Shown piece by piece: positions 904 to 29,338 of a stretch of 64,000 bases of DNA. This DNA comes from a virus (lineage: Duplodnaviria > Caudoviricetes): positions 24,243 to 88,242 of IMG/VR virus record IMGVR_UViG_3300024232_000009, one strand, 5' to 3'. Under the pieces are notes generated by a model, which saw nothing but the letters and a program-made list of their open reading frames with translations, was not told the DNA's origin and made no database searches. The position numbers and the translations under genes were made by a program. How positions within the stretch are numbered: position 1 is the first letter of the stretch; every line of letters begins with the position of its first letter.

Positions 904-1301
904 TAAACGATGCCGTTTTCCTCAAAGATCTCGATCTCTCCGTTGCGGCTCACATTATGCACACACAAGATGACCGTCTTATCCTCCAATGCCTGAAACA
1001 GATGCTTCACCTTGGCGTCGATGACGATTTGCTGGGGAGAAACGAACTCGCCCAGGTAGGAGCTATCTTTCCACACCGCCACCTTTCCGGAAGCGATCAC
1101 CGAAGTATGCGGGTAATTATGCGCGTGCTGCGGAATGTAGGTTCCGGCACAATGGATCAAGGTCGCGACGATGCCTATGCCATCGACCATTTCAAAAGAA
1201 ACGGTGTTGGGCTGTTCAGGGTGGCGAACGAATTGAGAGGGAAGCGCTGGGTCCATGGCCGCCTTGATCACCGATGGTCCGACCGAAACTGCTGGCATCA
1301 T
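903..1301 (-). CDS. Cupin-domain protein
   Basis: Cupin-like motifs PQHAHNYPHTSVIASG and KHLFQALED; strong AAGGAG RBS. Confidence 0.75.
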   Translation of the reverse strand: MMPAVSVGPSVIKAAMDPALPSQFVRHPEQPNTVSFEMVDGIGIVATLIHCAGTYIPQHAHNYPHTSVIASGKVAVWKDSSYLGEFVSPQQIVIDAKVKHLFQALEDKTVILCVHNVSRNGEIEIFEENGIV

Positions 1302-1861
1302 AATCTCCTTGTGCAGACAATGAGCGCGATCCGCTCCGTGTCGCCTTGGTTGTGGACGCTGTGCACCAATAGGTTGTTGAATGTCCAGACCGACCCAGGC
1401 CGCATGACCACCGTCTCATCCTCACTGGTGTTGAAGCATTGATCGTTCGCCCGCAGCGGCATCCACAGCTTGGTCGTGTAGTACTCGCTGTGCCATGTGC
1501 CCAGATCGTGATGCGGGTACACGTTGCGCCCGGCCGGGATCTTGGTCATCAGCACGCCACCAAGGCGCAGCCGCGGACTTTCGGCGAGGATCGGAGCGAT
1601 CATCGCGATCACGGTGCGGCGCATCGACGGCAGGATTTCCGCGGCCGGATACCAGACCGATCTATGCTCGGTCCGATAGTCCTCGGGCTCGCGCAATTCC
1701 TCGCGGGCGCGGTAACGAACCCAAATGTCCGACGTTTCTCGATGCGGGCCCACCCCCATCAGACGGCCAGGGTTTTCGTTCCACAGTTCGGGGTGCGCAT
1801 CGAGTTCCGCGAGCAGCGGCGCCACGTCGACACCTTCGGCAATCAGCGTGAAGTTTTTCAT
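1298..1861 (-). CDS. Aspartyl/asparaginyl beta-hydroxylase-like 2OG-Fe(II) oxygenase
   Basis: HxD (YPHHD), distal His (HSVHN) and 2OG-binding Arg (ERIALIV); MRPGSVWTFNN segment typical of the family. Confidence 0.85.
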   Translation of the reverse strand: MKNFTLIAEGVDVAPLLAELDAHPELWNENPGRLMGVGPHRETSDIWVRYRAREELREPEDYRTEHRSVWYPAAEILPSMRRTVIAMIAPILAESPRLRLGGVLMTKIPAGRNVYPHHDLGTWHSEYYTTKLWMPLRANDQCFNTSEDETVVMRPGSVWTFNNLLVHSVHNQGDTERIALIVCTRRL

Positions 1862-3810
1862 GAGACATCGACCTCCGCATCGAGGATTGCCGTAACGAAC
1901 GGATCAGACGATGACAATTCGAAAATTCGGTCCGCGCCACTAAAGCGGCGAGTGGCACCCAGTCTATTCGCCTTCACGGTGAAATTGGTTTCTCCTTCAC
2001 GGCCCACGGGGATAATCCTCTCATCACTGAATGTGTGACCGCCGTCATCACTCCACCGCAGGACCACCTGCGGCCTTGCATCCGGCACGATGCCCGCGCC
2101 GGTCTGCATGTCCACGCTCAACCAGTGGAACCGCACCGCCTGGTTCGTCGTCGCTGGGAGCGCCCGCCACCGGCGCAGCCAGCGTCTTTGCGTACCGTTG
2201 TCCGTCAGGGTCGCCGGATTGAAGGCATACAGGTTCCCATTCCGGTAATCGCCGAGGACGCCGCGGCCAGCGGCGGCTGGCGTGAAGACGGTCGTGCTGG
2301 TGGACGAGCCAGGCGGGTTTGTCGCGGGATCACCAAGCGTTCCGCTTGAAATACTGAATGGACCACCACGCCCATTGTTGACCGTGAACGTCGTCGCCGC
2401 ACCGTCTCGGGTGAGAAAGAGCGGTGGCGTAACACCAAAGGGGTTTTCTCCGGTGACACCCAAGAACCGTGCACCACCGGTCGCTGAAATGAAATTCCGC
2501 CGATTGGCCTCTACCGTGAGATCAACGAAATCACCGGTTTGGCCAAACCAGAGATCGGCCACAGTAGCGGTTTTGTCAGTCGGCGGCGGACCAGTCGGTG
2601 CGTCACCATCCCCCCAGATCAACGTCCCATCCGGCGAAATTCCCAATGCTTCGCCCTGAAAAAAATCTCCAAAGTCCGCGACGGTCGGTAGCTTGTGAAT
2701 GACGTTCGCAGCGTCCCAATAGACCGGCCACTTTTGTGTAAAGCCATCCTCGAACGACCATCCGCAAACGATCGTGCCATCATCGGACACCCCAGTCGCG
2801 GTTGACTCCCCACCGCCCGGAAGAGCGCCCAGGTTGGTCGCTGTCGTTCCATCCCAACGGACTGCCCAGTTATCGCCGCCGGCATCCTGCATTTGGCCTA
2901 CGGCAACTCCGGTTGGAACTCCAGCGGCAATTCCGTTTATACTTCCTGGCGGGCCGCCCGGAAACCGATCCAGGACATGGCAAACGCCGTAGAATGTAAC
3001 GCCGTTATGCGCCGTCGTCGTTGTCAGGCTGTCCCAATAGCATGGTCCGATGTTGGGGTTGCCAGTAGGATTGTCGATCCCACCATAAATCAACCCGCCG
3101 CTCGGCGTTGTTCCTGTGGTGCAGACGCGAGCGAAAGACGAGACGCCATTACTCGTGCCAAACGGCAACCCCGGGAGAGGATAGCATGCCCCCCCATACC
3201 AGAAACAAGCGCCGTCGCCCCCGAAATAAGTGAACCCGGCGAAGCCAACAACCGTCGCGCCCGTCGAGTCGCACGATGATGCGCTGGTCGTCGAATCAAC
3301 CGTGGCACCCGTTGGATCAGGCAATAGTGCGGGCGTACCATTGTCCCAGATCGTTGCTCGATTGATAAGTCCGGGGCCACCCGTGCTGGTGCCCACGACG
3401 TAACGTCCATTATCGGACATGGCCCGGTAATTAAACAGTGAACCGCCTAGTCCAGCGGCAACCTGGGTGCCCGAATATCCCGCGAACGGCAGCAATATGG
3501 TCCCGGTTGTTCCGCCACCGGTCCATCGGACCGGCTGCGCGGACATGAAATCGCTCCAACCATAAATAATTGAACTATCTGTTGAAATGTTTATTGCTTG
3601 CGTATCGCCTCCAGGCGAAACGTCATCCAGCGCCGTGACGGCCGTACCTAACCACTTTACCGCCTTTATGTTGCTGCCATTGTAAGACTGTCCGACGACA
3701 TTGTTCGAAGTCTGAACGCCGCCGCGTGGCAGATTTGGATCGACATCGACCACCAGAGGATCAAGTTGACTGACCGAGAACGAGACCCATTTAAGCGCGA
3801 CGATACTCAT
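1858..3810 (-). CDS. HAF-repeat beta-propeller + partial LamG-like segment + C-terminal part of P22 gp10-like head-closure/tail-hub protein
   Basis: Real start ATG 3810 (ATGA overlap with upstream stop). HAF-type repeats ATGVSDDGTIVCG and ALGISPDGTLIWG. C-terminus GDYRNGNLY...LRWSDDGGHTFS...RLG...IFELSSSDP is gp10-like. Confidence 0.75.
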   Translation of the reverse strand: MSIVALKWVSFSVSQLDPLVVDVDPNLPRGGVQTSNNVVGQSYNGSNIKAVKWLGTAVTALDDVSPGGDTQAINISTDSSIIYGWSDFMSAQPVRWTGGGTTGTILLPFAGYSGTQVAAGLGGSLFNYRAMSDNGRYVVGTSTGGPGLINRATIWDNGTPALLPDPTGATVDSTTSASSCDSTGATVVGFAGFTYFGGDGACFWYGGACYPLPGLPFGTSNGVSSFARVCTTGTTPSGGLIYGGIDNPTGNPNIGPCYWDSLTTTTAHNGVTFYGVCHVLDRFPGGPPGSINGIAAGVPTGVAVGQMQDAGGDNWAVRWDGTTATNLGALPGGGESTATGVSDDGTIVCGWSFEDGFTQKWPVYWDAANVIHKLPTVADFGDFFQGEALGISPDGTLIWGDGDAPTGPPPTDKTATVADLWFGQTGDFVDLTVEANRRNFISATGGARFLGVTGENPFGVTPPLFLTRDGAATTFTVNNGRGGPFSISSGTLGDPATNPPGSSTSTTVFTPAAAGRGVLGDYRNGNLYAFNPATLTDNGTQRRWLRRWRALPATTNQAVRFHWLSVDMQTGAGIVPDARPQVVLRWSDDGGHTFSDERIIPVGREGETNFTVKANRLGATRRFSGADRIFELSSSDPFVTAILDAEVDVS

Positions 3811-6092
3811 GTCACGACCTCGACTTTCCACGCATGGTCGGCGGCGGGCGCGATCGGATTGCTCGACGACCACGTCAACGAGGCCGCCGTCAGTCGACTT
3901 TCGACCAGCAAGCCCGAGATTACAGTGTTGGCATACACCTCGATGTCCTGGTTCGCGGTGTCGATCGCCATCATCACGTTCACCCAAGTGGTCCAAGTGG
4001 CGAAATTGTATGTCGCCACCACGATCGGGTTCGCATCCCCATCCCATGCTGACACGGTGATTTGCGGCGTTCCCGTGCTATCGTTCTGAATGACGATTTC
4101 CATTCCGGGTGTCGCACCTGCGCCCTGGTTGCTGAAAATAAGCCCCGTCGCCGCAGCATCCGACAAATCAAGCCAGACCGAAAACATCGCCGTCGAGAAG
4201 CTGATCGGCAGGCCATTCAATCCGGTCAGAGTGTCAAGTTCGGTCGGGTCGGTGATTTTGACCGCTTCGGGCGAATACGCGCTGTTGGTTTGCGCGAGCG
4301 TTCCGGAGCCACGCCACGGCGTCCAGGCATTCCCCCAATGGCGCTTGAATTCGCCATTGTCGAACGCGGCCAGACGGTGCCAGAGAGGATACCCGACCAA
4401 GGCAGAGGCGGTTTGATCGTACTCCCAGGTCTTGTCCGCTTCGGGGAAAGTCAGCACGTAGTATTCGTGGCCGCCTTCCTGTCTCGCGTAACCGATCGCA
4501 TCGCCGAGATTGGGATATTTGTCGAATTCAGCAGTCATCGCCTGCGTCGAAATGGTCGTCACACGGTAGCCCTTGGCAGCGACCACGATGCCTTGGCCCT
4601 GATTGTTACGGGACAGCCAAACCAATTCCTCGCCGACCGTCGCCGGCGAGAACGGCGCCATGCAACCCGTCTCGATGTGGACGCTGGTGATCGGCGCGAA
4701 TGGGAAATTCGGCAGCCCCTGATCCACCCAGACCTCGGTGTTGTCGGTTTTGAGGACGAACACCTCGTCATGGATGACATGGAGGCTGATCGTATTGTCC
4801 GGCGACTGGTTTGCCAGCCCAAAACTCAGCGCTGGCCACGTCGAAAGGTCCAGGGACTCGGATGCCGCCACATTCTGCTGCCCGAGGAACACAAGCACGC
4901 CGAAGCCATCGCTGATCCCGCCGACGATCGGGTTGGGGAACGGTAGATCGACCGGGATGAGACCGACAAATGAACCAAATGACGGACTTGTCAGGGTTAG
5001 GCCGGAACCAGATCCAGAGGTGGCTCTCTGTGAAAAGAGCGTCGCCGGCGTGTCGATCGCCCCTGGCTGTGTGATCGTGAACGCGATCACCGATCCGGTT
5101 GGACCAACGCCAGTGACGAGATACGTGGCGTCGCCCGTGCCACCCGAGACGAACCCGGCCGCGCCGATGACGTAGCCGTGGCCGCCGTTCGCCAGAACAG
5201 ACGCCGTGATCGGCCCCGCCGCTGTGATGTTCAGCGTGAAACCGACACCGAGGTTATTTTGGATCCCCGGAGCCGCCTGTGTGGAGGCCGTCGCCAGGGT
5301 GCTGTAGGCGGTCCCGCGGTTCAGCAGGACGAACGTGGTCACAACGCCACCGGAAACCCCTGTCACCCGGTAAACGGCATCCCGCGACCCGCTGGTGATA
5401 ATCCCCGTGTCGCCGACCGCATACCCGGTCCCGCCCGCGCCCAGTGTCGCTGCGGTGATGCCCGCGCCCGCCGCCGTCACATTGATGGTCAGACCGCTTC
5501 CGCCCCCCGGATGCGGTTGAATGGCTGTCGTCGCCACGCCGCTGGCGGTCGCATAGGTCGTGCCAGCGTTGGCCAGCGTATAGGTGGTGATCGGATTGTC
5601 CGCGATCGCAGTGATGGTGATGATCGGGTAGGAGGTCTGTACCCCGCTGTTCGCCTGCAGCGTGACGGTATCGTTGACCGCGTACAGGCCGCCATGGAGA
5701 TTGATCGTGCCGCCAGTCAAAGGGTAACCGCCAGGGACGATCCACCCACCGACCCCATCGACGATCATAAGCTGGCGGGTGTTCTGAAACATCGATACCG
5801 GCGTGTCCTGGTCGCCGATGGTCCCGCACAGCGTTTTCACCAACCCGGTGGTAACGCTCCACACCTCCTGGCCGGAAACGACGTAGAGCAAGTTGCCCAA
5901 CGGCAGCACGCCCCGGATCGGCCCATCGCCGACCGTGACGACCAGATCGAGGCCGGACGCGAGGAACAGGAACCCAGGGACTTTCCCGTCCTTGGTCTCG
6001 ATCACCTCGGCGATGATGTTGATTGCTTCGTTATCGGCCGCGTTCGGGCTGCGCTGCGTCGAGAAGCCGCCAAGTATTGGGGACTTCGGCAT
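3807..6092 (-). CDS. N-terminal part of P22 gp10-like DNA stabilization/tail-hub protein with Gly/Thr repeat insert and C-terminal LamG-like segment
   Basis: GPIRG N-terminal motif, SPDN...TEVW...GC.A..S...WL and GHEYYVLTFPEADKTWEYD motifs of the gp10 family; position directly after the gp4-like gene. Confidence 0.8.
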   Translation of the reverse strand: MPKSPILGGFSTQRSPNAADNEAINIIAEVIETKDGKVPGFLFLASGLDLVVTVGDGPIRGVLPLGNLLYVVSGQEVWSVTTGLVKTLCGTIGDQDTPVSMFQNTRQLMIVDGVGGWIVPGGYPLTGGTINLHGGLYAVNDTVTLQANSGVQTSYPIITITAIADNPITTYTLANAGTTYATASGVATTAIQPHPGGGSGLTINVTAAGAGITAATLGAGGTGYAVGDTGIITSGSRDAVYRVTGVSGGVVTTFVLLNRGTAYSTLATASTQAAPGIQNNLGVGFTLNITAAGPITASVLANGGHGYVIGAAGFVSGGTGDATYLVTGVGPTGSVIAFTITQPGAIDTPATLFSQRATSGSGSGLTLTSPSFGSFVGLIPVDLPFPNPIVGGISDGFGVLVFLGQQNVAASESLDLSTWPALSFGLANQSPDNTISLHVIHDEVFVLKTDNTEVWVDQGLPNFPFAPITSVHIETGCMAPFSPATVGEELVWLSRNNQGQGIVVAAKGYRVTTISTQAMTAEFDKYPNLGDAIGYARQEGGHEYYVLTFPEADKTWEYDQTASALVGYPLWHRLAAFDNGEFKRHWGNAWTPWRGSGTLAQTNSAYSPEAVKITDPTELDTLTGLNGLPISFSTAMFSVWLDLSDAAATGLIFSNQGAGATPGMEIVIQNDSTGTPQITVSAWDGDANPIVVATYNFATWTTWVNVMMAIDTANQDIEVYANTVISGLLVESRLTAASLTWSSSNPIAPAADHAWKVEVVT

Positions 6093-6841
6093 CAGTTACG
6101 CCCGGTCCCACGATCCGAGTAAATATTGTAGACCTGATTTCCTCGGCTCACGAGTTCCGGATCGAACACGGCCACCTGGGTGCGCATGTTATTACGTTTT
6201 ACGATTCCCTTCGTCTCCTTCGCCTCCAGGATGACCAGCGGGTCCAGCGTACCGCTGACAAAGTAGGGCTTGAGAGACAGGCACAGATTGGTGGTGACCG
6301 CGCGTTTGTAGCCGGGCGGCAGGCTGAACACCGTCGCCGCGCTCTGGAAATTGCCAAGCTGGTGGTAGGACAGAAACGAGCAGGTGTAGCCGACCGACGG
6401 CGTGGGCCACACATTGATGATGCCGAGCGGAAATTGCGGGTCGTAGAACAGATGGTCCGGCAGATCGGAGTTGGCGACCGCCGTGGTCTGGATGTTCCAC
6501 GTAAGCTGATCGACCACGTCCATCAGGTAGCGGTTGAGGTTGTTGTCGAGCAGATAGGCCGAGCCCGGTGCATCGCTCACGCGCAACGGTCGCTCGCCGA
6601 CGATGTCCGGATTCAGCGAGGCCGGTCCGATGGTGTATTGGAATTGCCCCGGAACGAGCGGGAAGGTCTGGGTGATCCAATCGAAGGTGGCGAGGCTTTC
6701 GTTCGACCACACATCCATCATGTCGTTTAGCGTTGACAGCGACCGGCTCAGATCGGCGGCGCTGATGGTGTCGCCTGGGCTGTAGATGCCCATCAGTTCG
6801 AGCGCGTCCTGAATGATATCTCGGGCGGTCACGACGGGCAT
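6092..6841 (-). CDS. P22 gp4-like head-tail adaptor
   Basis: N-terminus TARDIIQDALELMG...LNDMMDVW resembles gp4 (KGDLVRAALRKLG...LEAMMAEW); synteny. Confidence 0.75.
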   Translation of the reverse strand: MPVVTARDIIQDALELMGIYSPGDTISAADLSRSLSTLNDMMDVWSNESLATFDWITQTFPLVPGQFQYTIGPASLNPDIVGERPLRVSDAPGSAYLLDNNLNRYLMDVVDQLTWNIQTTAVANSDLPDHLFYDPQFPLGIINVWPTPSVGYTCSFLSYHQLGNFQSAATVFSLPPGYKRAVTTNLCLSLKPYFVSGTLDPLVILEAKETKGIVKRNNMRTQVAVFDPELVSRGNQVYNIYSDRGTGRN

Positions 6842-9203: not shown

Positions 9204-10042
9204 CAGATGGTCCTTTCAGCTTCGAGGCGGGCCAGGAGAGCGATCGCATTCTCCTTCGCCGCGATGTAAGTTTCATCAGGCTCGCCGCCGGCACTCCACT
9301 GCGCCATCAGCGCATCCGCCCGCGCGAGGAACTGCCGGTCGCGCTCTTCGAAATGCGCCATGATCGGCGCGATGTCCCGCGGCGGAATACCGAGTTCGGC
9401 GGATACCCAGCGCGCCTCACGGACGCGGTCCGGCCTGGTCGCGGCGAATACCCCGATCCAAAAGGCCAGTTCCCGCATACGGGTGGTCTTGTCGGTGCGG
9501 GGGCCGGCGCACTTCGACGTGAGGGCGACGCGCGGGAAACCGTGCACCAGGGCATCGACTTCCTCGACGGCGCTATCATCAAACCAGAACGGGAAGATCG
9601 CGGGGTTGGCGGGACCGGGGAGGGCAGCGCGCCATGCCGGTGGCAGGATATATTGCGCGGGACCGACCAGGTGAATGCTATCGAGCCACAAAACACGATT
9701 GGGGAACTGCATCACGCCAGAGGCGAGGTCATGATCCCAGTGCGGCGCGATGATCACGGACCGGTCCGTCCAAAGCAGGAATGCCGCCTCTTTGTCGGCC
9801 GCGGCGATCAGCCGGTTGTTGATCTCACCCAGGCCGAGCGGGCGCGGACCGAACGATGATTTGACGTTCACGCCGCGCGCCAGCAACCGGGAGGCGATCT
9901 CCATTGTTTCCGTGTCGCCGTGATCATGGCCCACGATGTACTGGACCTCATGATGACCGCTGCGGGTCTTTTCGAGCGAGAGGATCGACGCGGCGAGATC
10001 AAGTGGACGCCCGCGCGAGGGCACGCCAACAGCGATTTTCAT
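9203..10042 (-). CDS. Second GT-A-like glycosyltransferase
   Basis: N-terminal IAVGVPSRGRP, VGHDHGD, LWTDR (degenerate DxD) and WFDD motifs. Confidence 0.65.
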   Translation of the reverse strand: MKIAVGVPSRGRPLDLAASILSLEKTRSGHHEVQYIVGHDHGDTETMEIASRLLARGVNVKSSFGPRPLGLGEINNRLIAAADKEAAFLLWTDRSVIIAPHWDHDLASGVMQFPNRVLWLDSIHLVGPAQYILPPAWRAALPGPANPAIFPFWFDDSAVEEVDALVHGFPRVALTSKCAGPRTDKTTRMRELAFWIGVFAATRPDRVREARWVSAELGIPPRDIAPIMAHFEERDRQFLARADALMAQWSAGGEPDETYIAAKENAIALLARLEAERTI

Positions 10043-10305
10043 CAGGCGTTTCCTTGGACTGGCGTAAGAATTTGCCGGATACCGGAGGCGACATTCTGCG
10101 TGATCAGATTGAACGCATGAACTGGATCGGTCTGGCTCATGAAGCTGCTCAACAGGACCGTGCCAAGGATGTCCGGAGTGTAGGCGCCTCCGACCTCATT
10201 CAGCATGAGTAAGATTTTTCCGGCGGTTTCCCTGACGATTTTTTCATGCTCAGGAGATGGGGTTGCCCCAATTCTCCCCATGAACTCTATCGGTTCATCA
10301 GCCAA
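10042..10305 (-). CDS. Hypothetical protein
   Basis: 87-aa ORF with TGATG coupling. Confidence 0.55.
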   Translation of the reverse strand: MADEPIEFMGRIGATPSPEHEKIVRETAGKILLMLNEVGGAYTPDILGTVLLSSFMSQTDPVHAFNLITQNVASGIRQILTPVQGNA

Positions 10306-10399
10306 GGCGCTCTCTCCACCCGGCTATCAGCCGCCGGTAGGCACCCGGCTGGATGCCGGTGGGGGAAGTAACAACCCCCACCGTTACCCTGTCAAATGG

Positions 10400-11833
10400 T
10401 TAGCTGCCGGACATTAGGCCCAGTGAGACCAGCGCGTTGCGCGCTGCGTTGGCCACGTTGGTCGTGCCAGTATCGGCCGCGAAGACCGGCTGGGCCATTG
10501 CATTGCCCGAGGTGGTGTCGATCAGCGCCTGGAAGTTGGCCACTGTGTAGACCTCGGCCGGCGTCGGAGTGATCGCCGTCGCGGTCGCGTTGCAGAAGTT
10601 GATCGCCAGGGTGTTCAACGCGGACACCCGGACACCGACGATACCAAGGCCGCGCTGCGCCGTCGGCTTGTTCACGATCACCACCGAACCAGAAACCAGG
10701 CCCGTGACAGTGAAGGTCTGCTCGGCAGTCGTGTTGGCCGCGACCACGGTTGGCGTCAGGGTCGGGCTGTAGACGACCGCTGGTGCCGCCGGTGCCATCC
10801 GGTTCAGCGTGATCAGGTAGATTTCCGAAGCCGTCGGCGTGAGGGTGCCAGCCGTCGGATTGACGAACGTCTCCTTCAGCGTGTTCGCCGCCGATACGCG
10901 GCCGGCGACCAGGCCAAGGCCCGCCTGCAGCGTGGGCTTCTGCACACCGATCTGCACGTCATCGACCAGCACGTTCGCCGAGGTCAGCGTGATATCGGCG
11001 GTCGTGATGGTCGCCACGGTCGCCGGCGTTAGCGTTGAGTTCGCCGCGATCAGGACCGTGTTGTTGTCCGCGCCGATACCCGCCGTCTGGAAGAAGGAAT
11101 AGGTCTGACCAGCGGTCGGCGTCAGGGTTCCGGTCGTCAGGTTGGCGAAAGTGATGCCGACCGAGTCATCGCCCGCGATGCGCACGCCGACGATATCCAA
11201 CCCGGCGTTGGTCGTTGGCTTGTTGACCGCGATCGCGCTCCCAACCGCGAGGCCGGGCACGGTGAACAACTGCTCGACCGTGGTGCTGGATACCACCGCG
11301 GCGGGGGTCAGTACCGCCGTGAGGACGCCAATCCCGCGCACGCCGACGATCCCGTAAACCTGAGAAGCGGTCGGGGTCAGGGTGCCAGCGGAGAAGTTGT
11401 TGAACGTCAGACCGATTACGTTCGCCGAGGACTGGCGCACGTTGCCGACACCAATCCCCGCCTGAGAGGTCGGCTTGTTGACGATCATGAAGTCTCCGGT
11501 GATCGGCGTCAGAGTGCTCCCGGTGCCGTTCTGGACGGTGATCGACTGCTCCGCACTCGTCAGGGTCACCACGGAAGATGGCGACTGCAAAGAGGCGAAG
11601 GTCATCACCAGGCCGCCAGCCTGGCCGGTGTTAACCGCGGCCTCCAGCGAGCCGGCGGGCTGCACGATCGGGGTCGCGCCGTAGAAGCCGAGTTTATCGC
11701 TCGCGCTGAAGCCCATCTGGGTGCCAGGGCCGCCGCGCAATCCATTGCCGTCGGAAAGTTGCCGGACGTTCGAGGTAGTGGTGACGTTGCCCGTCGTGCT
11801 GGGCTCACCGGTGCCGTTGTTGGTGCCGCTCAT
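10400..11833 (-). CDS. Capsid decoration-like protein with four tandem ~80-aa Thr-rich repeats
   Basis: N-terminal KLGFYGATPIVQP and C-terminal ARNALVSLGL motifs typical of the small gene after the coat gene; four internal repeats with VNKPT..GL.IVGVR...N...TLTPT. Confidence 0.7.
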   Translation of the reverse strand: MSGTNNGTGEPSTTGNVTTTSNVRQLSDGNGLRGGPGTQMGFSASDKLGFYGATPIVQPAGSLEAAVNTGQAGGLVMTFASLQSPSSVVTLTSAEQSITVQNGTGSTLTPITGDFMIVNKPTSQAGIGVGNVRQSSANVIGLTFNNFSAGTLTPTASQVYGIVGVRGIGVLTAVLTPAAVVSSTTVEQLFTVPGLAVGSAIAVNKPTTNAGLDIVGVRIAGDDSVGITFANLTTGTLTPTAGQTYSFFQTAGIGADNNTVLIAANSTLTPATVATITTADITLTSANVLVDDVQIGVQKPTLQAGLGLVAGRVSAANTLKETFVNPTAGTLTPTASEIYLITLNRMAPAAPAVVYSPTLTPTVVAANTTAEQTFTVTGLVSGSVVIVNKPTAQRGLGIVGVRVSALNTLAINFCNATATAITPTPAEVYTVANFQALIDTTSGNAMAQPVFAADTGTTNVANAARNALVSLGLMSGS

Positions 11834-11834
11834 G

Positions 11835-12158
11835 TCAGTTCACTCCATTCGGGGAAATTGGCGTCATCGGATAGGCTTCCGCCTTGGTCCAATCGCGGCG
11901 CCCTTGGGTGAGGATCTGGCGGTTGACCGCTTCGACCATCTGCCCGCAGGCATCCGCGCACATCATCGGGCCCAGAAACACGACCTTTCCGGTCTCGCGC
12001 ACGGTGACGCCAACCTGGAAGAGCGGCTCTGGCTCTTTCTGCTGGGTCATTCTCGCCGCCATCTCCGGGTCGATCGGACGCCCGTTGCGCTCTTGTTCAA
12101 GGAGCGAACGGTAATCTTCCCGGAGTTTGCGTTGCGCGCGTCGCTGGGCCCGGTTCAT
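11835..12158 (-). CDS. Hypothetical protein
   Basis: ATG 12158 overlaps coat-gene TGA (MNRAQRR...). Confidence 0.6.
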   Translation of the reverse strand: MNRAQRRAQRKLREDYRSLLEQERNGRPIDPEMAARMTQQKEPEPLFQVGVTVRETGKVVFLGPMMCADACGQMVEAVNRQILTQGRRDWTKAEAYPMTPISPNGVN

Positions 12159-13342
12159 CAGTTCGTCAACCGGCAAGCAAGCTCGTTGTAGAACTGGGCG
12201 ACGCCAAACAGGATATCGATACGGCACGGGGTCACGTCATTCCAGACGTCATAGGCCCGGACGATACGCATCGAGATATTGCGGAACATTTGCCGGGCCG
12301 CGAAGTCGACGCCTCCTGGCAGTTCCATCGGCACACACACGAGGCCCATGGCATCGCGGGTGAAGCCCATGTTCTGGAAGTAGGAGGTGCTGGCGCTGCC
12401 CAGCGGTGTGATAACTGCACCGTTGGCCGGGCCCGCCGACACGTTCTGGTATGCGCCAGAGGTCGTGATCGCCGGGGAGATTTGCAGCGTTGCGTTGCCG
12501 CCTGCGTCAGATGCCGCAACCGCAGTCACGGTGAACTGTTTCAGCGTCCCGGTGCTGAGATAGTTCTGGGGGTTGACCGCGTACACGCCGGCCATGGTGA
12601 AGGTATCACCGACGTTCAGCAGGGCCGCGATGCTGGCCGTCCAGCCATTGGTGATGATGCTCGAACCGCTCTGGTTCGCGCCATTGACCACCGGTGTGCC
12701 GGCGTAAGCGCCAACGGTCTGCGCCTGGACGTTCTGATCCAGGTAGATTTCGAAATTGGCGATCGCCGCGAGGAAGCCCTTCAGCGCGGGTTCGGCGACA
12801 GAGCGGGTGAACAGGTTGCTCACACCGTTGGCGATGGCCCAGTAAGCGGCCGGGTTCAGGATCAGCACGCGGCCATCCTGCGGCGCCGCGTTCTCATCGA
12901 GGCGCTGGCCAACCGCGGCGATCGACGCGAAGGAGTTCGGCGGCGTGCCGGGGGTGCCGACCTCGTTGGAAAACTGGTTCCACAGCGCCAGCACCGAGGT
13001 ATCGATGGTGTTCGCCAGGGTTTCCGCGGCGGGCTTGCAGTACCGCTCCGAGTATTCCTCGATCGTCAGGGTCAGTTCCTGCGAGGAAAACTGGAAGTCA
13101 ACGTGCGCCTGCGTCGAAATGCTGATCGACGTCGAGGGCTCGGTGATGTCCTGGATCTGAAGTGCCGGACCAAGCGTGACGGTGAAGCGGTTCGGCTTGC
13201 GGACAGTCAGCGTGGTGCCGATTTTGACGAACTGGTTCTCGAACTGACGATTGACCTTGCCCGCGGCGACCAGGTTGTTCGTCAAGATGACCAGCGTTTC
13301 CTTGGTGATCAAGGACGGCGTGAGCAGGGCGTTCGTGGCCAA
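12158..13342 (-). CDS. Major capsid protein (P22 coat protein family)
   Basis: KIGTTLTVRKP, AAETLANTID, CRIDILFG motifs; AGGAGA RBS; follows scaffold. Confidence 0.9.
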   Translation of the reverse strand: MATNALLTPSLITKETLVILTNNLVAAGKVNRQFENQFVKIGTTLTVRKPNRFTVTLGPALQIQDITEPSTSISISTQAHVDFQFSSQELTLTIEEYSERYCKPAAETLANTIDTSVLALWNQFSNEVGTPGTPPNSFASIAAVGQRLDENAAPQDGRVLILNPAAYWAIANGVSNLFTRSVAEPALKGFLAAIANFEIYLDQNVQAQTVGAYAGTPVVNGANQSGSSIITNGWTASIAALLNVGDTFTMAGVYAVNPQNYLSTGTLKQFTVTAVAASDAGGNATLQISPAITTSGAYQNVSAGPANGAVITPLGSASTSYFQNMGFTRDAMGLVCVPMELPGGVDFAARQMFRNISMRIVRAYDVWNDVTPCRIDILFGVAQFYNELACRLTN

Positions 13343-13485: not shown

Positions 13486-14715
13486 TTAGTGCAGTCCACC
13501 TTCCGGGAAGAACGGGCGCCGGGTGGCGCGCAGTGCTTCGTTCCGTTTGGCGGCGTAGGCTTCCATATCAGGCTCTTCGTCTGATCGGTCGCCAGCATTC
13601 CGTCCGCTGTCAATTGGCTCGATCGGTTCTTCGCGCGGCGCACGCCGGCGAGGGGGATTGGCCAACCTCTCGGCGATACGGCCGATTTCGATGAAGTGCG
13701 ACGCGGCATCCGGCATGTTCGCGATGCGCGCCGCCTCTTCGGTGTTCTGTCCCAGGAAGTACGCGACTTCGGGGCCGTTCTCGACCTTCATGATGGCGAA
13801 CGCCATCGGTTTGGAGATCACCGGTCCACCCTCGGCGGGGTCGGCCTCGGCCACCTCCGCGTAATCGGCGTATTTCTCCATCGTGGCGGCGCGGCGTTCG
13901 TTCCAGGTGTTGTTGAGCTTGACGAGTTCCGCCTCCTGGGCGTCCTTTTCCTCTTGCTCTTTGGTGGCGCGCTCTTCGGCTTCCGCCGCGGCCTTCTTCT
14001 CGGCCGCTTCCTTTTCCGCCGCCCGGAGACCATCGCGGCGTGCCCAATCTGTCAGAGCATCATCGTAGGCGTCCGGGTCGTCGAAGGCGTCGCGGGTCGG
14101 GCGCGGGTCAGTATCGGCGACCTCATCGACCTTGGTTTCGGTCGGGACACGCGCCTTCAGTTCCGCGAGTTCCACCCGGGCAGCTTCGGCCGCGGCTTCC
14201 GCATCGCGAGCCTTCTTGCCGGCGCTGGTAGCGGCCTCCCGCTCCTTCTGGACGATCTGATCCCGGGCAAGATTGACCGCCGTTTCCCATGCTTCGCTGC
14301 CGACCTTCGCCTTGGCTGCTTTCTCCAGCGCCTGGCGATACTCCTTGGCCTTTTTCTTCTCGGTCAGGATTTGACGGCGGGCCCAGTCGGGAAGGCGATC
14401 GGATACCGCCGCTTCATCCTCGACCTCCTTGCCGTCGACGCTGAGTTCCTCGGCATCGTCATCGCCCTTGGCATCATCGGCTTTCGCCATCTCGCCAGTT
14501 TTTTCAGGGTCCGTACCATCACCTTTGCGCGCGGCATCGGCGAGTGCGAGGTCTTCCGGGCTGATTTCCTTGGAGACGCCGCCTGTCTGGTCCGTCGCGT
14601 CGTTCGAGGCTGACTCGGGGGGCTTCGGCAGTTCCGCCAACGGCTGATCCGACACCGCTGCCAAGGGTATGGCGCTACGAACGATGATGTCGGGTTGACG
14701 CGCTGCGAGTGCCAT
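13486..14715 (-). CDS. Capsid scaffolding protein
   Basis: Acidic coiled-coil protein with P.RDAFDDPDAYDDAL and GPEVAYFLG motifs, between portal and coat. Confidence 0.8.
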   Translation of the reverse strand: MALAARQPDIIVRSAIPLAAVSDQPLAELPKPPESASNDATDQTGGVSKEISPEDLALADAARKGDGTDPEKTGEMAKADDAKGDDDAEELSVDGKEVEDEAAVSDRLPDWARRQILTEKKKAKEYRQALEKAAKAKVGSEAWETAVNLARDQIVQKEREAATSAGKKARDAEAAAEAARVELAELKARVPTETKVDEVADTDPRPTRDAFDDPDAYDDALTDWARRDGLRAAEKEAAEKKAAAEAEERATKEQEEKDAQEAELVKLNNTWNERRAATMEKYADYAEVAEADPAEGGPVISKPMAFAIMKVENGPEVAYFLGQNTEEAARIANMPDAASHFIEIGRIAERLANPPRRRAPREEPIEPIDSGRNAGDRSDEEPDMEAYAAKRNEALRATRRPFFPEGGLH

Positions 14716-15089: not shown

Positions 15090-15356
15090 TTAGGCGCCTG
15101 GATCGACCGTCTTTTCGCGCTGCGCCTTCATCTCGGCAACCAATTTCTCAATGCCGCTGGCGATGCGCTCCTGCGTACCGGCAAGTGAACTGATCGCGGC
15201 GATGAAATCGGGCGGGACCATCAGCATCATGCCCACCGGAGCGGGCACGCCACCGGTGGACTTCTTCTTCCCCTTGGGCTTTGGTTTGGTCGCTGGCTTC
15301 GCTGGCGGTTCGTCGGCGTCATGGTGCGCGATTGGATCCCACTCGCCGCCGCTCAT
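15090..15356 (-). CDS. Hypothetical protein
   Basis: 88-aa ORF, ATGA overlap with portal stop. Confidence 0.6.
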   Translation of the reverse strand: MSGGEWDPIAHHDADEPPAKPATKPKPKGKKKSTGGVPAPVGMMLMVPPDFIAAISSLAGTQERIASGIEKLVAEMKAQREKTVDPGA

Positions 15357-17728
15357 GCTGCCCTCGCTGGCTTGCCATCAGGCCCAAGGGTCCACTTCTG
15401 CCCGTTGCGGAAAGTGGTCACTCGATCCGGCCGCAAATGCTGAAGCGCTTCGGGCGGTGGCGTATCATCCGCGGGCGAAGCGTCTTGACCCGCACCGCCT
15501 GCACCATCCGCGCCTTCCGCCTCTTCGTCGTTGGCCGCGTCCGGTTCCTCCAGCGCGTGCATCAGCGACGTGACGCCTTCACCAAGCTGGCTGATCTGCG
15601 CGGCGATGTGCGTGTTGAAGTTGGCGCTCGCCTTCTCCTGGATCGCGGCCATCTTGGTCTCGACGTCGGACACGATCTTGATCAGCTTGGCCTCGAAGTC
15701 CTTCTGTATCTTCTCGGCCTCGAGCGCGCGATCTTCCTTCTTGTCCTGGAGCGCGGCCATCGCCGCCTGGAGCTGCTGCGTCAGTTCCTTCAGCGCCTGC
15801 TCTTGCTGCGTCAGCACCGCCTGCACCTGCGGCGGTACGTCCTTCATGTCCGGCGTCATCAGGCCTGGCGGGATCGTCTTGGCGAGGCGCGTCGCGATTT
15901 CCTCGGCACCTGGCCAATCCTGATTTTTGGCGAAAAGATCGGCGACGAGTGCCGCGGTCTGCGGGAGCGCCTTCATGAACGCCATCATGTTTTCGGCCGC
16001 CTCGATGCGCTTCGTCGCGTAGCTCGGGCCGATCGTCACCGTCACGCCGTATTTGCCGAATTTCGGGTTGAACAGCTTGCGGGTTTTGCCGTCGGCCTTC
16101 TTCTCTTCGCCCATGGCCTTGCCGAGCGTCGGATCGACCTTGACCTGTTCCTCCTTGTCGTCCTCGCGGAGGATCGTCACCACGCGCGGGTCGTCGTAAA
16201 TCTTCGGGATCACCTCCACGAAAATCTCGCCGGTCCGCTTCAGAGCGCGAGCCAGGTTGTCGACGTAGTGGAAGGAGCCAAGGTCACCGGACCGGCGAAG
16301 CTCGCGGATCGCCTTCCCTGACTCATCGATCATCCGCTCGTTCATCGTGGCGTCGAACCGGATACCGGTTGTCGCCATCATGTCCTGCCCGGCGTTCACG
16401 CCGGCCTGGACCACGCCGGCCGGAATCCCCGCCATCGGCTGCCGCTGCGGCGGCGGCGCCTGCGTCCCGCCAACCGACGTGCCTTTGTAAGACAGATAGG
16501 GCATGTTTTTGACGTTGGCGTTCTTCCACTCGTCCTCGTGCCCCTCGATCTGGCCTTCCTCGACCACCCAGGGCGATTTGGGCTGGAGCGCGATCAGTTC
16601 CGTCTCCGCGGTGCGCCAATAATTGAACATGCGCTGCGGATCTTTGGCGTGACGGATGACGCCCGAGTATTTGACCTTCCCCTCGATGTCGATCTCGTCA
16701 CCGACAACCTTGACGATCGGGATGGTGGAGCCCTGCCACTCGCGTTTCATCAGCACGTCGTTGGCCGTGATCTTGTACCACATGACCTTGGGAACCCGGC
16801 TCTCGCGTTCGTCCACGATTTGCACGCGCTTGCGCCCGATCCGAGCCAAGGTCATCTCGTCCAGTTCGTCGTACCAGCCAACATGGCCATTATCGAGTTC
16901 GACCAGCTTGCGCGTCTTGTAGTCGACCTCGAAATACTCGGCGATCCGAACCTCGTCCTTGGCGATCCAGTTGGTGAACTTCTCCCCTATTCCGCCTTCC
17001 GTGTAGTTGAGCGGGTCAGCGTCGGGGTATTTTTCCTCGTACTCGTCACGCGGCATCATCTCGGTGATGAAGCCCCACTTGGCATCTGCGGCGGTCGGGT
17101 CTTGGTGCGCCGGATCCAGATAGACGGTGAACGGATTGCGGATGCGCCGGACCACCAGCACCAGATTGAAGCTGTCCGGCGCCTCCCGCTCGGTCAGGAT
17201 ACGCCAGTAACCCCAGCCCATGGTCACCGCGTCATCGAACGCCGTGTCGTAGGCGATATCGGCCGCGCAGTCTCGTTCAATGAACCGGATCAGCCCACGG
17301 TACATCTTCGCGACCTCGGGGTCGCCGCGATCGCCAACCGGGCTGATGTTGATCGATGGACGGTTCTGGCGCTGATCGTTGACGATCTGATGAATAAACG
17401 TCGGCAGCTTGTTGATCGTCAGGCATGGCCGCTTATCCAGGTTGCGCTGGGCCATGATCTCTTTCGGCCACTGGTCGCCAGCCTTGAACAGGCGGTCATC
17501 GAGGGCTGATTTTCGGTTGTCGCTCTCCGCTGTGATCGCCTTTTCCATGCGCTTACGCGCGCGGCTCAACAGCTTTTCCTTTTCGGCTTCCTGCCCCTTT
17601 GGGAAGCCCAGTGCGGTGCCCTTGTCGTCGCCAAGCATCGACGCTGGACTGACCTTATTCATCGCACTGTCCACGGATGGCATGCGAATTCGCCCGTTAT
17701 CCTTGGGCTTGTCTACTGCCTGCGCCAA
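15353..17728 (-). CDS. Portal protein (P22-like)
   Basis: GDQWP, PCLTINKL, GWGYWRI, AKDPQRMFNYW and GKYGVTVTIGPSYATKR motifs. Confidence 0.92.
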   Translation of the reverse strand: MAQAVDKPKDNGRIRMPSVDSAMNKVSPASMLGDDKGTALGFPKGQEAEKEKLLSRARKRMEKAITAESDNRKSALDDRLFKAGDQWPKEIMAQRNLDKRPCLTINKLPTFIHQIVNDQRQNRPSINISPVGDRGDPEVAKMYRGLIRFIERDCAADIAYDTAFDDAVTMGWGYWRILTEREAPDSFNLVLVVRRIRNPFTVYLDPAHQDPTAADAKWGFITEMMPRDEYEEKYPDADPLNYTEGGIGEKFTNWIAKDEVRIAEYFEVDYKTRKLVELDNGHVGWYDELDEMTLARIGRKRVQIVDERESRVPKVMWYKITANDVLMKREWQGSTIPIVKVVGDEIDIEGKVKYSGVIRHAKDPQRMFNYWRTAETELIALQPKSPWVVEEGQIEGHEDEWKNANVKNMPYLSYKGTSVGGTQAPPPQRQPMAGIPAGVVQAGVNAGQDMMATTGIRFDATMNERMIDESGKAIRELRRSGDLGSFHYVDNLARALKRTGEIFVEVIPKIYDDPRVVTILREDDKEEQVKVDPTLGKAMGEEKKADGKTRKLFNPKFGKYGVTVTIGPSYATKRIEAAENMMAFMKALPQTAALVADLFAKNQDWPGAEEIATRLAKTIPPGLMTPDMKDVPPQVQAVLTQQEQALKELTQQLQAAMAALQDKKEDRALEAEKIQKDFEAKLIKIVSDVETKMAAIQEKASANFNTHIAAQISQLGEGVTSLMHALEEPDAANDEEAEGADGAGGAGQDASPADDTPPPEALQHLRPDRVTTFRNGQKWTLGPDGKPARAA

Positions 17729-25948: not shown

Positions 25949-26455
25949 TCACACCCTCCCGACGTGCCCCTTCGCGCGCTCGGCCCGCCACTTCTCGGCC
26001 ATCGGGTCGGGGCCGGCCATCGCACCCATGGAGAAGCCAGGACGCGGCGCTGAAGGTGTCTTCGTGGTGAAGATGCCTTCCGGCTTGGCCGGCGCAACAA
26101 CGACGGGAGGCGGCGCAACAGGCGCGGGCTTCGGTGCAACGGGTTCAGGCTTGGCGATCGGGATCACGATGCGCAGCGACCGCGCCCGGTTCTGCACCGC
26201 CTTGTCGCTCGGCATCTCGGGCCCGGGCATTCGCCGCAGCAGCGGGCAATACTGGTGCGGCATCATGCGATCTTCGATGACAAAGTGCCGCAGCGCGGCC
26301 AACCTGTCGTCCGTCAGCCACCTGCCGCGCACGACAACCTTGTCGACTGCCTCGGCCAGCGCCGCGCGTTCGATCCCGCGTAATTCGTCCTCGGCAACGG
26401 CCAACGCCCGCTTGATCGCCGCGATCCTCGCACGTAGATGATCCCGGCGCGTCAC
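25949..26455 (-). CDS. Hypothetical protein with possible HTH and Pro-rich tail
   Basis: GTG 26455 overlapping the terL TGA. Confidence 0.55.
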   Translation of the reverse strand: MTRRDHLRARIAAIKRALAVAEDELRGIERAALAEAVDKVVVRGRWLTDDRLAALRHFVIEDRMMPHQYCPLLRRMPGPEMPSDKAVQNRARSLRIVIPIAKPEPVAPKPAPVAPPPVVVAPAKPEGIFTTKTPSAPRPGFSMGAMAGPDPMAEKWRAERAKGHVGRV

Positions 26456-29088: not shown

Positions 29089-29338
29089 GCAAAGCCTCCA
29101 ACGTCGGGAGATCGGTGCTGTGCTCGATCGCGCGCCGCTTCGGTGCGATGTATTGCGCCAGTTCGGCGAACATGCGCCCGCGCAGCTCCATCGGGTTATT
29201 CTTGCCCATGGCGATGCGCGCCATGCCCACGATGGGATCGCAGCCCAGCTTGGCGAGCCGCTCGGCGACCTCAAGCGTGCGCTTGTTCGGCGCTCCCTTT
29301 GGCCGTCCAGCGCCTTGCCGCTTGCCACCTACCGGCAT
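29069..29338 (-). CDS. terS: Terminase small subunit
   Basis: GGKRQGAGRPKGAPNKRT and ELAQYIAPKRRAIE motifs directly upstream of terL. Confidence 0.75.
   Translation of the reverse strand: MPVGGKRQGAGRPKGAPNKRTLEVAERLAKLGCDPIVGMARIAMGKNNPMELRGRMFAELAQYIAPKRRAIEHSTDLPTLEALLGRLDD

Follow-up and report, generated by a model that had tools for sequence, protein, structure and literature searches.

This study deals with the tail hub of a short-tailed phage, known from metagenomes only, whose 88-kb IMG/VR record (IMGVR_UViG_3300024232_000009) is classed as linear and 88% complete; bases 24243-88242 of that record form the stretch of 64,000 nucleotides analysed here, called the window below. The hub is the ring below the head that forms the exit path of the DNA, and in phages of the P22 type it is regarded as a conserved single-chain ring, receptor binding being left to tailspikes, fibres or the needle. 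We are fairly confident that the two genes found in the window are real, are translated separately and jointly encode one protomer of the tail hub, a hub that is probably made of two chains. This conclusion draws on the structure of the two genes and on how far it is conserved, on the homology of every segment, on the variability of the inserted module and on the unsplit forms that exist in nature. The two genes and their junction are as follows.

3807..6092, minus strand: hub gene 1 (product P1, 761 amino acids), with the hub N-terminus, repeats, propeller core and most of a probable LamG-like sandwich
1858..3810, minus strand: hub gene 2 (product P2, 650 amino acids), with a variable module, the rest of the sandwich and the hub C-terminus
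3807..3810, minus strand: ATGA junction, the stop of gene 1 overlapping the start of gene 2 (read from the sequence)

The original prediction, made from the letters of this DNA, had claimed that two open reading frames (ORFs) on the minus strand meet at this ATGA overlap and divide a P22 gp10-like sequence between them, and both claims hold. P1 ends in ...HAWKVEVVT, its TGA stop has three bases in common with the ATG of P2, and GAGG lies 8-11 nucleotides upstream of that ATG. The profile phrog_578, that of the 'head closure Hc3' or P22 gp10 family, matches P1 residues 395-587 with its positions 150-334 (E 3e-52) and P2 residues 514-649 with its positions 341-469 (E 3e-15); it is therefore divided between the ORFs at positions 334/341, with almost no profile positions lost, and neither ORF gives the full match without the other. 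P1 accounts for the N-terminal two thirds of the hub, and the second of these matches identifies the C-terminal segment of P2 as gp10-derived. The gp10-like sequence breaks off after ...RHWGNAWTPWRG in P1 and restarts at GVLGDYRNGNLY in P2, two motifs that stand only 4-20 residues apart, in one chain, in unsplit relatives without insert (P0072, P0077 and P0084, where ...RHWGN... is joined directly to ...GDYRNGN...). The same is seen in cultured phages, where the regions homologous to P1 391-590 and P2 514-650 adjoin in one gene, and the GenBank phage genes under the hub match are annotated as 'packaged DNA stabilization protein' or 'Hc3'. P1 also matches in sequence the solved cyanophage hubs Pan3 (9vyg_M) and Pam1 (7eeq_1); the hub-type fold, an interrupted six-bladed beta-propeller with an apical domain made from the N- and C-terminal segments, is recognised here, and the hub lies straight after a gp4-type adaptor gene, as it does in P22-like modules. 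By profile, fold and gene position, P1 and P2 belong to the gp10/gp8 hub family, from which they depart in one feature: the protomer is not one polypeptide but is encoded by two ORFs in different frames. The whole record contains one copy of each hub part and no further hub copy. From the hub N-terminus to its C-terminus, the segments of the two products are these.

5733..6092, minus strand: hub N-terminal segment, P1 residues 1-120, aligning to residues 39-112 of the Pan3 hub 9vyg_M
4923..5732, minus strand: insertion at P1 residues 121-390, holding three tandem repeats of about 88 amino acids (about 121-375)
4323..4922, minus strand: hub beta-propeller core, P1 residues 391-590, matching phrog_578 150-334, 9vyg_M and 7eeq_1
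3810..4322, minus strand: L1, the first ~170 residues of the probable LamG/ConA-like sandwich, P1 residues 591-761
2575..3810, minus strand: V, predicted HAF-like beta-propeller of eight ~50-residue repeats, P2 residues 1-412
2272..2574, minus strand: L2, the remaining ~100 residues of the probable LamG-like domain, P2 residues 413-513
1861..2271, minus strand: C, the hub C-terminal segment, P2 residues 514-650 (137 residues)

The N-terminal segment is conserved throughout the hub relatives. It is followed by the tandem repeats, which are beta-rich, carry the motif GG-x-GY-x-x-G-D-T-G...DA-x-Y-x-VT-x-V and score 121-123 in pairs, against 43 +/- 7 in shuffled sequence. Their copy number ranges in the relatives from about 0-1 to three or more (they are absent or reduced in P0078, P0084 and P0085), and the hub positions that flank them are only about 20 residues apart in Pan3 9vyg_M.

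The second insertion is a probable LamG/ConA-like sandwich, an assignment drawn from language-model and fold similarity. In the ESM-Atlas, 29 of the 30 named clusters nearest to P1 591-761 are Laminin_G_3, as are 20 of the 30 nearest to residues 490-775 of the unsplit relative P0167 (scores 0.90 for the first and 0.90-0.91 over both segments), and the nearest Laminin_G_3 clusters are viral. The Atlas model of P1 592-761 has template-modelling (TM) scores of 0.55-0.66 to Laminin_G_3, GH43_C2 and polysaccharide-lyase sandwiches, and the segment of P0140 homologous to L1 is modelled with 12 strands, mostly at a predicted local distance difference test (pLDDT) score of 75-95. The LamG label of the original prediction is thus supported by Atlas features and fold similarity, but not by Pfam. 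The sandwich is interrupted where the prediction had said, since the equivalents of ...HAWKVEVVT-stop and of ...ADLWFGQTGDFVDL... are contiguous in P0167 with about 17 residues between them (the gap falls between the equivalents of ...AWKVEVV and ...ADLWF...); the 'two halves' of which it spoke are, however, unequal, with ~170 residues before the cut and 100 after it. L1 and L2 are also contiguous, and duplicated together, in tandem paralogues such as P0125 and P0135, the form that the variable module takes in some relatives. Two single chains, P2 and the unsplit P0140, were modelled with AlphaFold2. In P2 alone, L2 reaches a pLDDT of only 38-47 (residues 410-530 lie below 50) and the hub C segment is well modelled, whereas the segment of P0140 homologous to L2 reaches about 59-86. 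The contiguity of L1 and L2, their joint duplication and these models indicate together that L1 and L2 make up one domain unit and that the C segment is part of the hub fold. The LamG-like unit also occurs in tandem outside hubs, as in P0226 (960 amino acids), which has four L2-like copies and no hub parts.

Within the sandwich lies the third insertion, which is the whole N-terminal part of P2. It contains eight copies of a HAF-like motif with a period of about 50 residues, and AlphaFold2 and Foldseek together predict a beta-propeller for P2 1-405: the block-mean pLDDT is mostly above 90 (with dips at about 121-130 and 211-220), 32 strands are modelled, and the top Foldseek matches, such as prolyl oligopeptidase, TolB, CylK and PknD, have E values of 1e-8 to 1e-5. 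The NCBIfam model TIGR02913 (HAF_rpt) falls just short, with 22.1 bits against a cut-off of 22.65 for one partial repeat at P2 338-354. The propeller that had been read from the letters finds good support in the predicted fold.

The division of the hub is not peculiar to the window. A search with P1 gave 104 relatives, most of about 760 amino acids and 50-73% identical over 100% of the query, and the 253 proteins gathered in all were sorted by which of seven segments they contain. This gave 72 upstream halves, about 58 downstream halves, four unsplit LamG hubs and 73 unsplit hubs without LamG, counts that are biased towards the split form because the searches were seeded with it. The two-gene reading of the original prediction is in this way extended to a whole family. 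Among the upstream halves, 69 of 72 stop within 10 residues of the point where P1 ends. The other three (P0047, P0046 and similar, 862 amino acids) run about 105-114 residues beyond the usual break, into a repeated W-N-D-G-G region, and the cut site is therefore not exactly the same in every lineage. The downstream halves that have a homologous propeller are alike from residue 1 (MSIVALKW, MTVLALKW, MSIFALRW). Junction DNA was examined in ten related LamG-bearing loci, with the following results.

L002, L005 (identical junction sequence in L087 and L088), L007 and L009: ATGA
L089: ATGA at the P1 stop, the ATG opening an ORF of only nine codons
L086: TAATG
L003: TGAgATG, with a stop in the P2 frame two codons upstream of the start
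L006: (G)TGA, the contig ending soon after
L093: no junction (unsplit), one open ORF of more than 1279 amino acids

Outside the window, nine split loci have junctions of the ATGA, TAATG or TGAnATG kind. The frame offset is -1 in most relatives, with stop and start separate in L003 and a TAATG in L086. At L089 (2995-7213; Ga0302320_10028774) there are three apparent genes, namely an upstream half of 777 amino acids, an ORF of 343 amino acids at the position of the variable module, and an ORF of 274 amino acids with L2 and the hub C segment only. Such a form may be the source of the short 'anchor only' proteins P0128 (240 amino acids), P0148 and P0168 (278 amino acids).

How could two such products make one hub? 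In Sf6 the gp8 hub is an interrupted six-bladed propeller in which the N- and C-terminal extensions make up an apical domain, the part to which the adaptor ring binds (PMC9728967), and gp59 of Pa223 has the same interrupted propeller and adaptor-binding apical domain (bioRxiv 10.1101/2025.06.11.659172). We infer that chain 1 would run from the N-terminal extension of the hub through the three decorative repeats and the propeller core into the LamG-like sandwich, stopping ~100 residues short of the end of the sandwich; chain 2 would add the eight-repeat HAF-like propeller, complete the sandwich and provide the 137 C-terminal residues of the hub. The ATGA overlap probably couples translation of gene 2 to that of gene 1, which would favour equal amounts. 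Given that the C-terminal hub residues pair with the N-terminal extension in the solved hubs, the second chain would have two points of attachment, one in the sandwich and one in the hub apical domain. A hexameric hub would then consist of six P1-P2 pairs, with six LamG-plus-propeller modules displayed on its outside as adhesion or receptor-binding units. With the cut placed exactly at the 5' edge of an exchangeable module, the constant tail of 240 residues would act as a built-in anchor for whatever module a lineage carries. In Pa223 the tail fibres are held, non-covalently, by a loop of the hub that points outward and immediately precedes the C-terminal segment (bioRxiv 10.1101/2025.06.11.659172).

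A few points weigh against this proposal. The separate existence and the association of the two chains are read here from genes and models, and the contact between L1 and L2 from pLDDT values and domain contiguity. The insertion in the window, just before the C segment, falls roughly at the position of the Pa223 fibre loop, the mapping being approximate. Unsplit relatives indicate that one chain works too, so that the split is not needed for function, and the three-gene form at L089 may reflect either one more fission or a faulty assembly. PF11134 has no direct match, either by hmmscan of both ORFs at E<=1 or in a six-frame search of the record, although a precomputed collection table assigns it to P1 and to all P1 relatives. 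PF13385 matches neither P1 nor any of seven L1 pieces, and the unsplit relatives and the record translated in six frames have no match to it either; likewise, LamG and Phage_stabilise matches were absent when both ORFs and the unsplit relatives were scanned with Pfam and NCBIfam. A profile search of the PDB with the hub alignment found only the two cyanophage hubs and no LamG chain, a search for short proteins made up of L1-like sequence alone yielded a single fragment but nothing annotated as a LamG protein, and propellers dominate the matches when the whole model of P0140 is used for fold searches.

One may also think of P1 as a self-sufficient one-chain hub, remodelled at its C-terminus, with P2 as an optional or sub-stoichiometric appendage that docks through its hub-derived domain. 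The fibres of Pa223, which are attached to their hub without a covalent link, give some credence to this idea, as do the apparently separate ORFs for module and anchor at L089, and 'anchor only' proteins such as P0128 and P0168 hint at a looser modularity. We nevertheless consider it unlikely. All 73 LamG-less unsplit hubs that were examined possess the C segment, which provides half of the adaptor-binding apical domain in solved hubs. The record has no other copy of it, L2 does not fold by itself in the AlphaFold2 model of P2 alone, and the overlap of the two genes favours equal synthesis.

The original prediction had itself offered another reading, a -1 frameshift that would yield one chain of about 1400 amino acids; this chain would arise by programmed frameshifting near the end of gene 1, or else the split would be a one-base error of sequencing or assembly. 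It is true that the P2 frame is open for 79 codons upstream of its ATG, and that natural single-chain relatives exist (P0081, P0140, P0150 and L093). But no slippery X XXY YYZ heptamer or homopolymer run is present in the last nine codons of P1, the same end point is found in 69 divergent proteins from independent assemblies, and a start codon stands exactly at the junction in eight other loci. Moreover, the geometry of the junction varies between ATGA, TAATG and TGAgATG, and the P2 frame of L003 has a stop only two codons upstream. The shared end points, the varied junctions, the missing slippery site and the like N-termini of the downstream halves therefore make a frameshift or a sequencing error very unlikely, and this reading is largely refuted. 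The cut is real and old, and not an artefact. That the hub gene is simply broken in a decaying or defective phage, as a stop codon inside a usually single gene and a 'linear' record of 88% completeness might suggest, can be dismissed, for both halves are 50-73% identical over their full length in many independent contigs, the neighbouring structural genes are intact and there is no second hub gene.

Joining of the two products by a split intein or by trans-splicing was considered and rejected. Neither P1 nor P2 has an intein or Hint match in Pfam, in a library that did detect the terminase intein of the same phage, and P1 stops inside the sandwich while P2 opens with the first propeller strand.

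The comparison with unsplit relatives, which had been suggested along with the original prediction, supports the nested insertion that it had proposed, of a variable module in a LamG-like sandwich in the hub: each of these layers is found in nature in a form of its own. Besides the 73 hubs without LamG, there is a hub with an uninterrupted LamG, P0167 (906 amino acids), and there are hubs with LamG and insert in one chain, namely P0081 (1213 amino acids), P0140 (1069 amino acids), P0150 (1389 amino acids) and the open ORF of L093. P0081, P0140 and P0150 carry unrelated inserts of 205-385 residues at the very point where the window is cut, and it is at this same insert point that the window and most of its relatives are cut. 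An exhaustive search of representatives with P2 retrieved about 50 proteins of 430-680 amino acids that share only their last ~240 residues, at 49-65% identity, and the parts ahead of this constant tail fall into at least 14 sequence clusters. The variable modules include fn3 (6 members), Big_9 (Ig-like), cadherin-like domains, BNR Pfam matches, LamG paralogues and HAF-like propellers. These are module types typical of adhesion or carbohydrate binding; a receptor-binding role is therefore reasonable, and by this analogy the inserted modules may bind the receptor.

A second split occurs at another site of the hub. In L084 (3800-5470; IMGVR_UViG_3300033475_000125), a hub without LamG, the ORF stops inside the C segment, after about 66 of its 137 residues, and this stop again shares an ATGA with the start codon that follows. 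P0137 (488 amino acids), the product of the adjoining gene, begins with a propeller that is 43% identical to that of the window and has the N-terminus of the latter, and it ends with the last 68 hub residues. Many IMG/VR hubs, and P0218 too, have an insert at this second site without being split. By sequence comparison, L084 is a second, independent split of the hub, and the same module, with its own start codon, is found at two hub sites, the hub being cut each time at the 5' edge of the module. The original prediction had overlooked this second site, as well as the 88-residue repeats, the family-wide conservation of the cut and the unsplit relatives.

The history of the hub was approached with an unrooted FastTree tree of 145 proteins, computed from the hub-core columns only, with Shimodaira-Hasegawa (SH)-like support. 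The LamG-bearing forms lie inside the forms without LamG, with P0167 and P0081 close to the base of the LamG-bearing clade. Split forms surround P0140 and P0150 (support 99), and a seven-member clade without LamG is found deep inside the split forms (support 96); at least nine state changes are required. This fits an order from no insert to LamG, then to a nested insert and then to fission, followed by fusions, losses or cassette transfers, though a FastTree tree alone is no proof of it. We put forward, tentatively and with slightly less than even confidence, a more general idea: podovirus hubs would have evolved repeatedly into two-chain 'plug-in' devices, in which the gene is cut right before any inserted binding module and the module gains a free N-terminus. 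The leftover hub strands would form a universal anchor, which by strand complementation would become part of both the split sandwich and the apical domain that binds the adaptor, and host-range modules would be exchangeable, as cassettes from start codon to anchor, between insertion sites. It is the occurrence of the same propeller at two sites that suggests such an exchange.

How far does this hub differ from known ones? The hubs of P22 (gp10) and Sf6 (gp8), corresponding to PHROG 578 'Hc3' and PF11134 Phage_stabilise (PDB 8u10, 8eap and 7sg7), are encoded by one gene and are about 470 residues long, whereas that of the window is encoded by two, reaches a combined length of 1411 amino acids and has three insertions not present in P22 and Sf6 (the tandem 88-residue repeats, the LamG-like sandwich and the nested propeller). 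The 'needle head' of cyanophage Pam1 (7eeq) and the 'stabilization protein' of Pan3 (9vyg) are single chains of 442-446 amino acids without these insertions. In Pa223 (gp59, 9nwi), binding is located on separate fibre trimers held by a loop of 34 residues; in the window, by contrast, the hub chain is cut and modules of the binding type belong to its own polypeptides. Hub or nozzle homologues with large insertions are known from SU10 (7z47_G, 912 amino acids) and from crAss001 (the muzzle protein, 7qok_A, 1361 amino acids), but these are single polypeptides, and in the literature searched we found neither nested insertion nor gene fission reported for them. More generally, that literature yielded no description of a hub divided between two genes, of a nested hub insertion or of a relevant fission of tail genes, and none of the cultured phages in the collection searched has the LamG part or the split form. 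Decorated hubs are thus already known from SU10 and crAss001, and the two-gene hub is a new form within a known family.

The consequences are of several kinds. A large uncultured lineage from soil and freshwater appears to carry exchangeable adhesion domains in the hub itself, and two discontinuous domains, the sandwich and the hub apical domain, seem to be shared out between two polypeptides. This would be a natural case of gene fission at the boundary of a domain insertion, with all intermediates extant. It would also be a candidate determinant of host range that annotation has missed, both halves being at most 'hypothetical protein' in the searched collections. The anchor sequence of ~240 residues offers a handle for finding hub-borne binding modules and for swapping them in laboratory phage-host pairs. 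For annotation, a hub ORF that ends in ...W-x-V-x-x-V and is followed by an ORF with a gp10 C-terminus should be regarded as one functional unit, and not as a truncated gene next to a gene of no assigned role.

The two hub genes belong to a P22-like head-tail module on the minus strand, with the terminase, portal, scaffold and coat genes upstream of the hub. A DNA-ejection protein, a protein of 2887 amino acids, a lysozyme-domain protein and a tail fibre are encoded beyond the two hub ORFs, downstream. The main neighbours are listed here.

26452-29328, minus strand: large terminase
15353-17728, minus strand: portal
13486-14715, minus strand: scaffold
12158-13342, minus strand: major head protein
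6092..6841, minus strand: gp4-like head-to-tail adaptor, abutting hub gene 1 on its upstream side (phrog_12985, E 1.4e-33)
1298..1861, minus strand: Asp/Asn beta-hydroxylase-like protein of 187 amino acids, the next gene after P2 (PF05118, E 9.7e-11)

The adaptor also has a weak match to phrog_637 'head-tail adaptor Ad3', and its homologues in L002-L013, 42-77% identical, immediately precede the hub gene. None of the small ORFs downstream of the hub could be recognised as a needle gene. A megablast of the region against 50,697 GenBank phage records gave no match, nor did a scan of IMG/VR with a single protein. The hydroxylase-like gene, whose PF05118 score is 42.2 bits (cut-off 22.6), is coupled to the P2 gene by a second ATGA overlap. 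Since homologues of it recur downstream of the hubs in L003 and L011-L013, the hydroxylase-like protein may modify a virion protein.

Two observations on other genes may be added. In L082 (5085-7742, minus strand; record bases 9384-12041), the ejection-protein cluster encodes a protein of 885 amino acids that starts with a phage tail lysozyme domain (PF18013, E 1e-7) and is probably an injected cell-wall hydrolase. The large terminase ORF of the window (958 amino acids), with terminase matches on both flanks, is interrupted by an intein that carries a homing endonuclease (LAGLIDADG_3, E 7.9e-16, residues 572-652; Intein_splicing, 35.4 bits against a cut-off of 35.8, residues 389-714).

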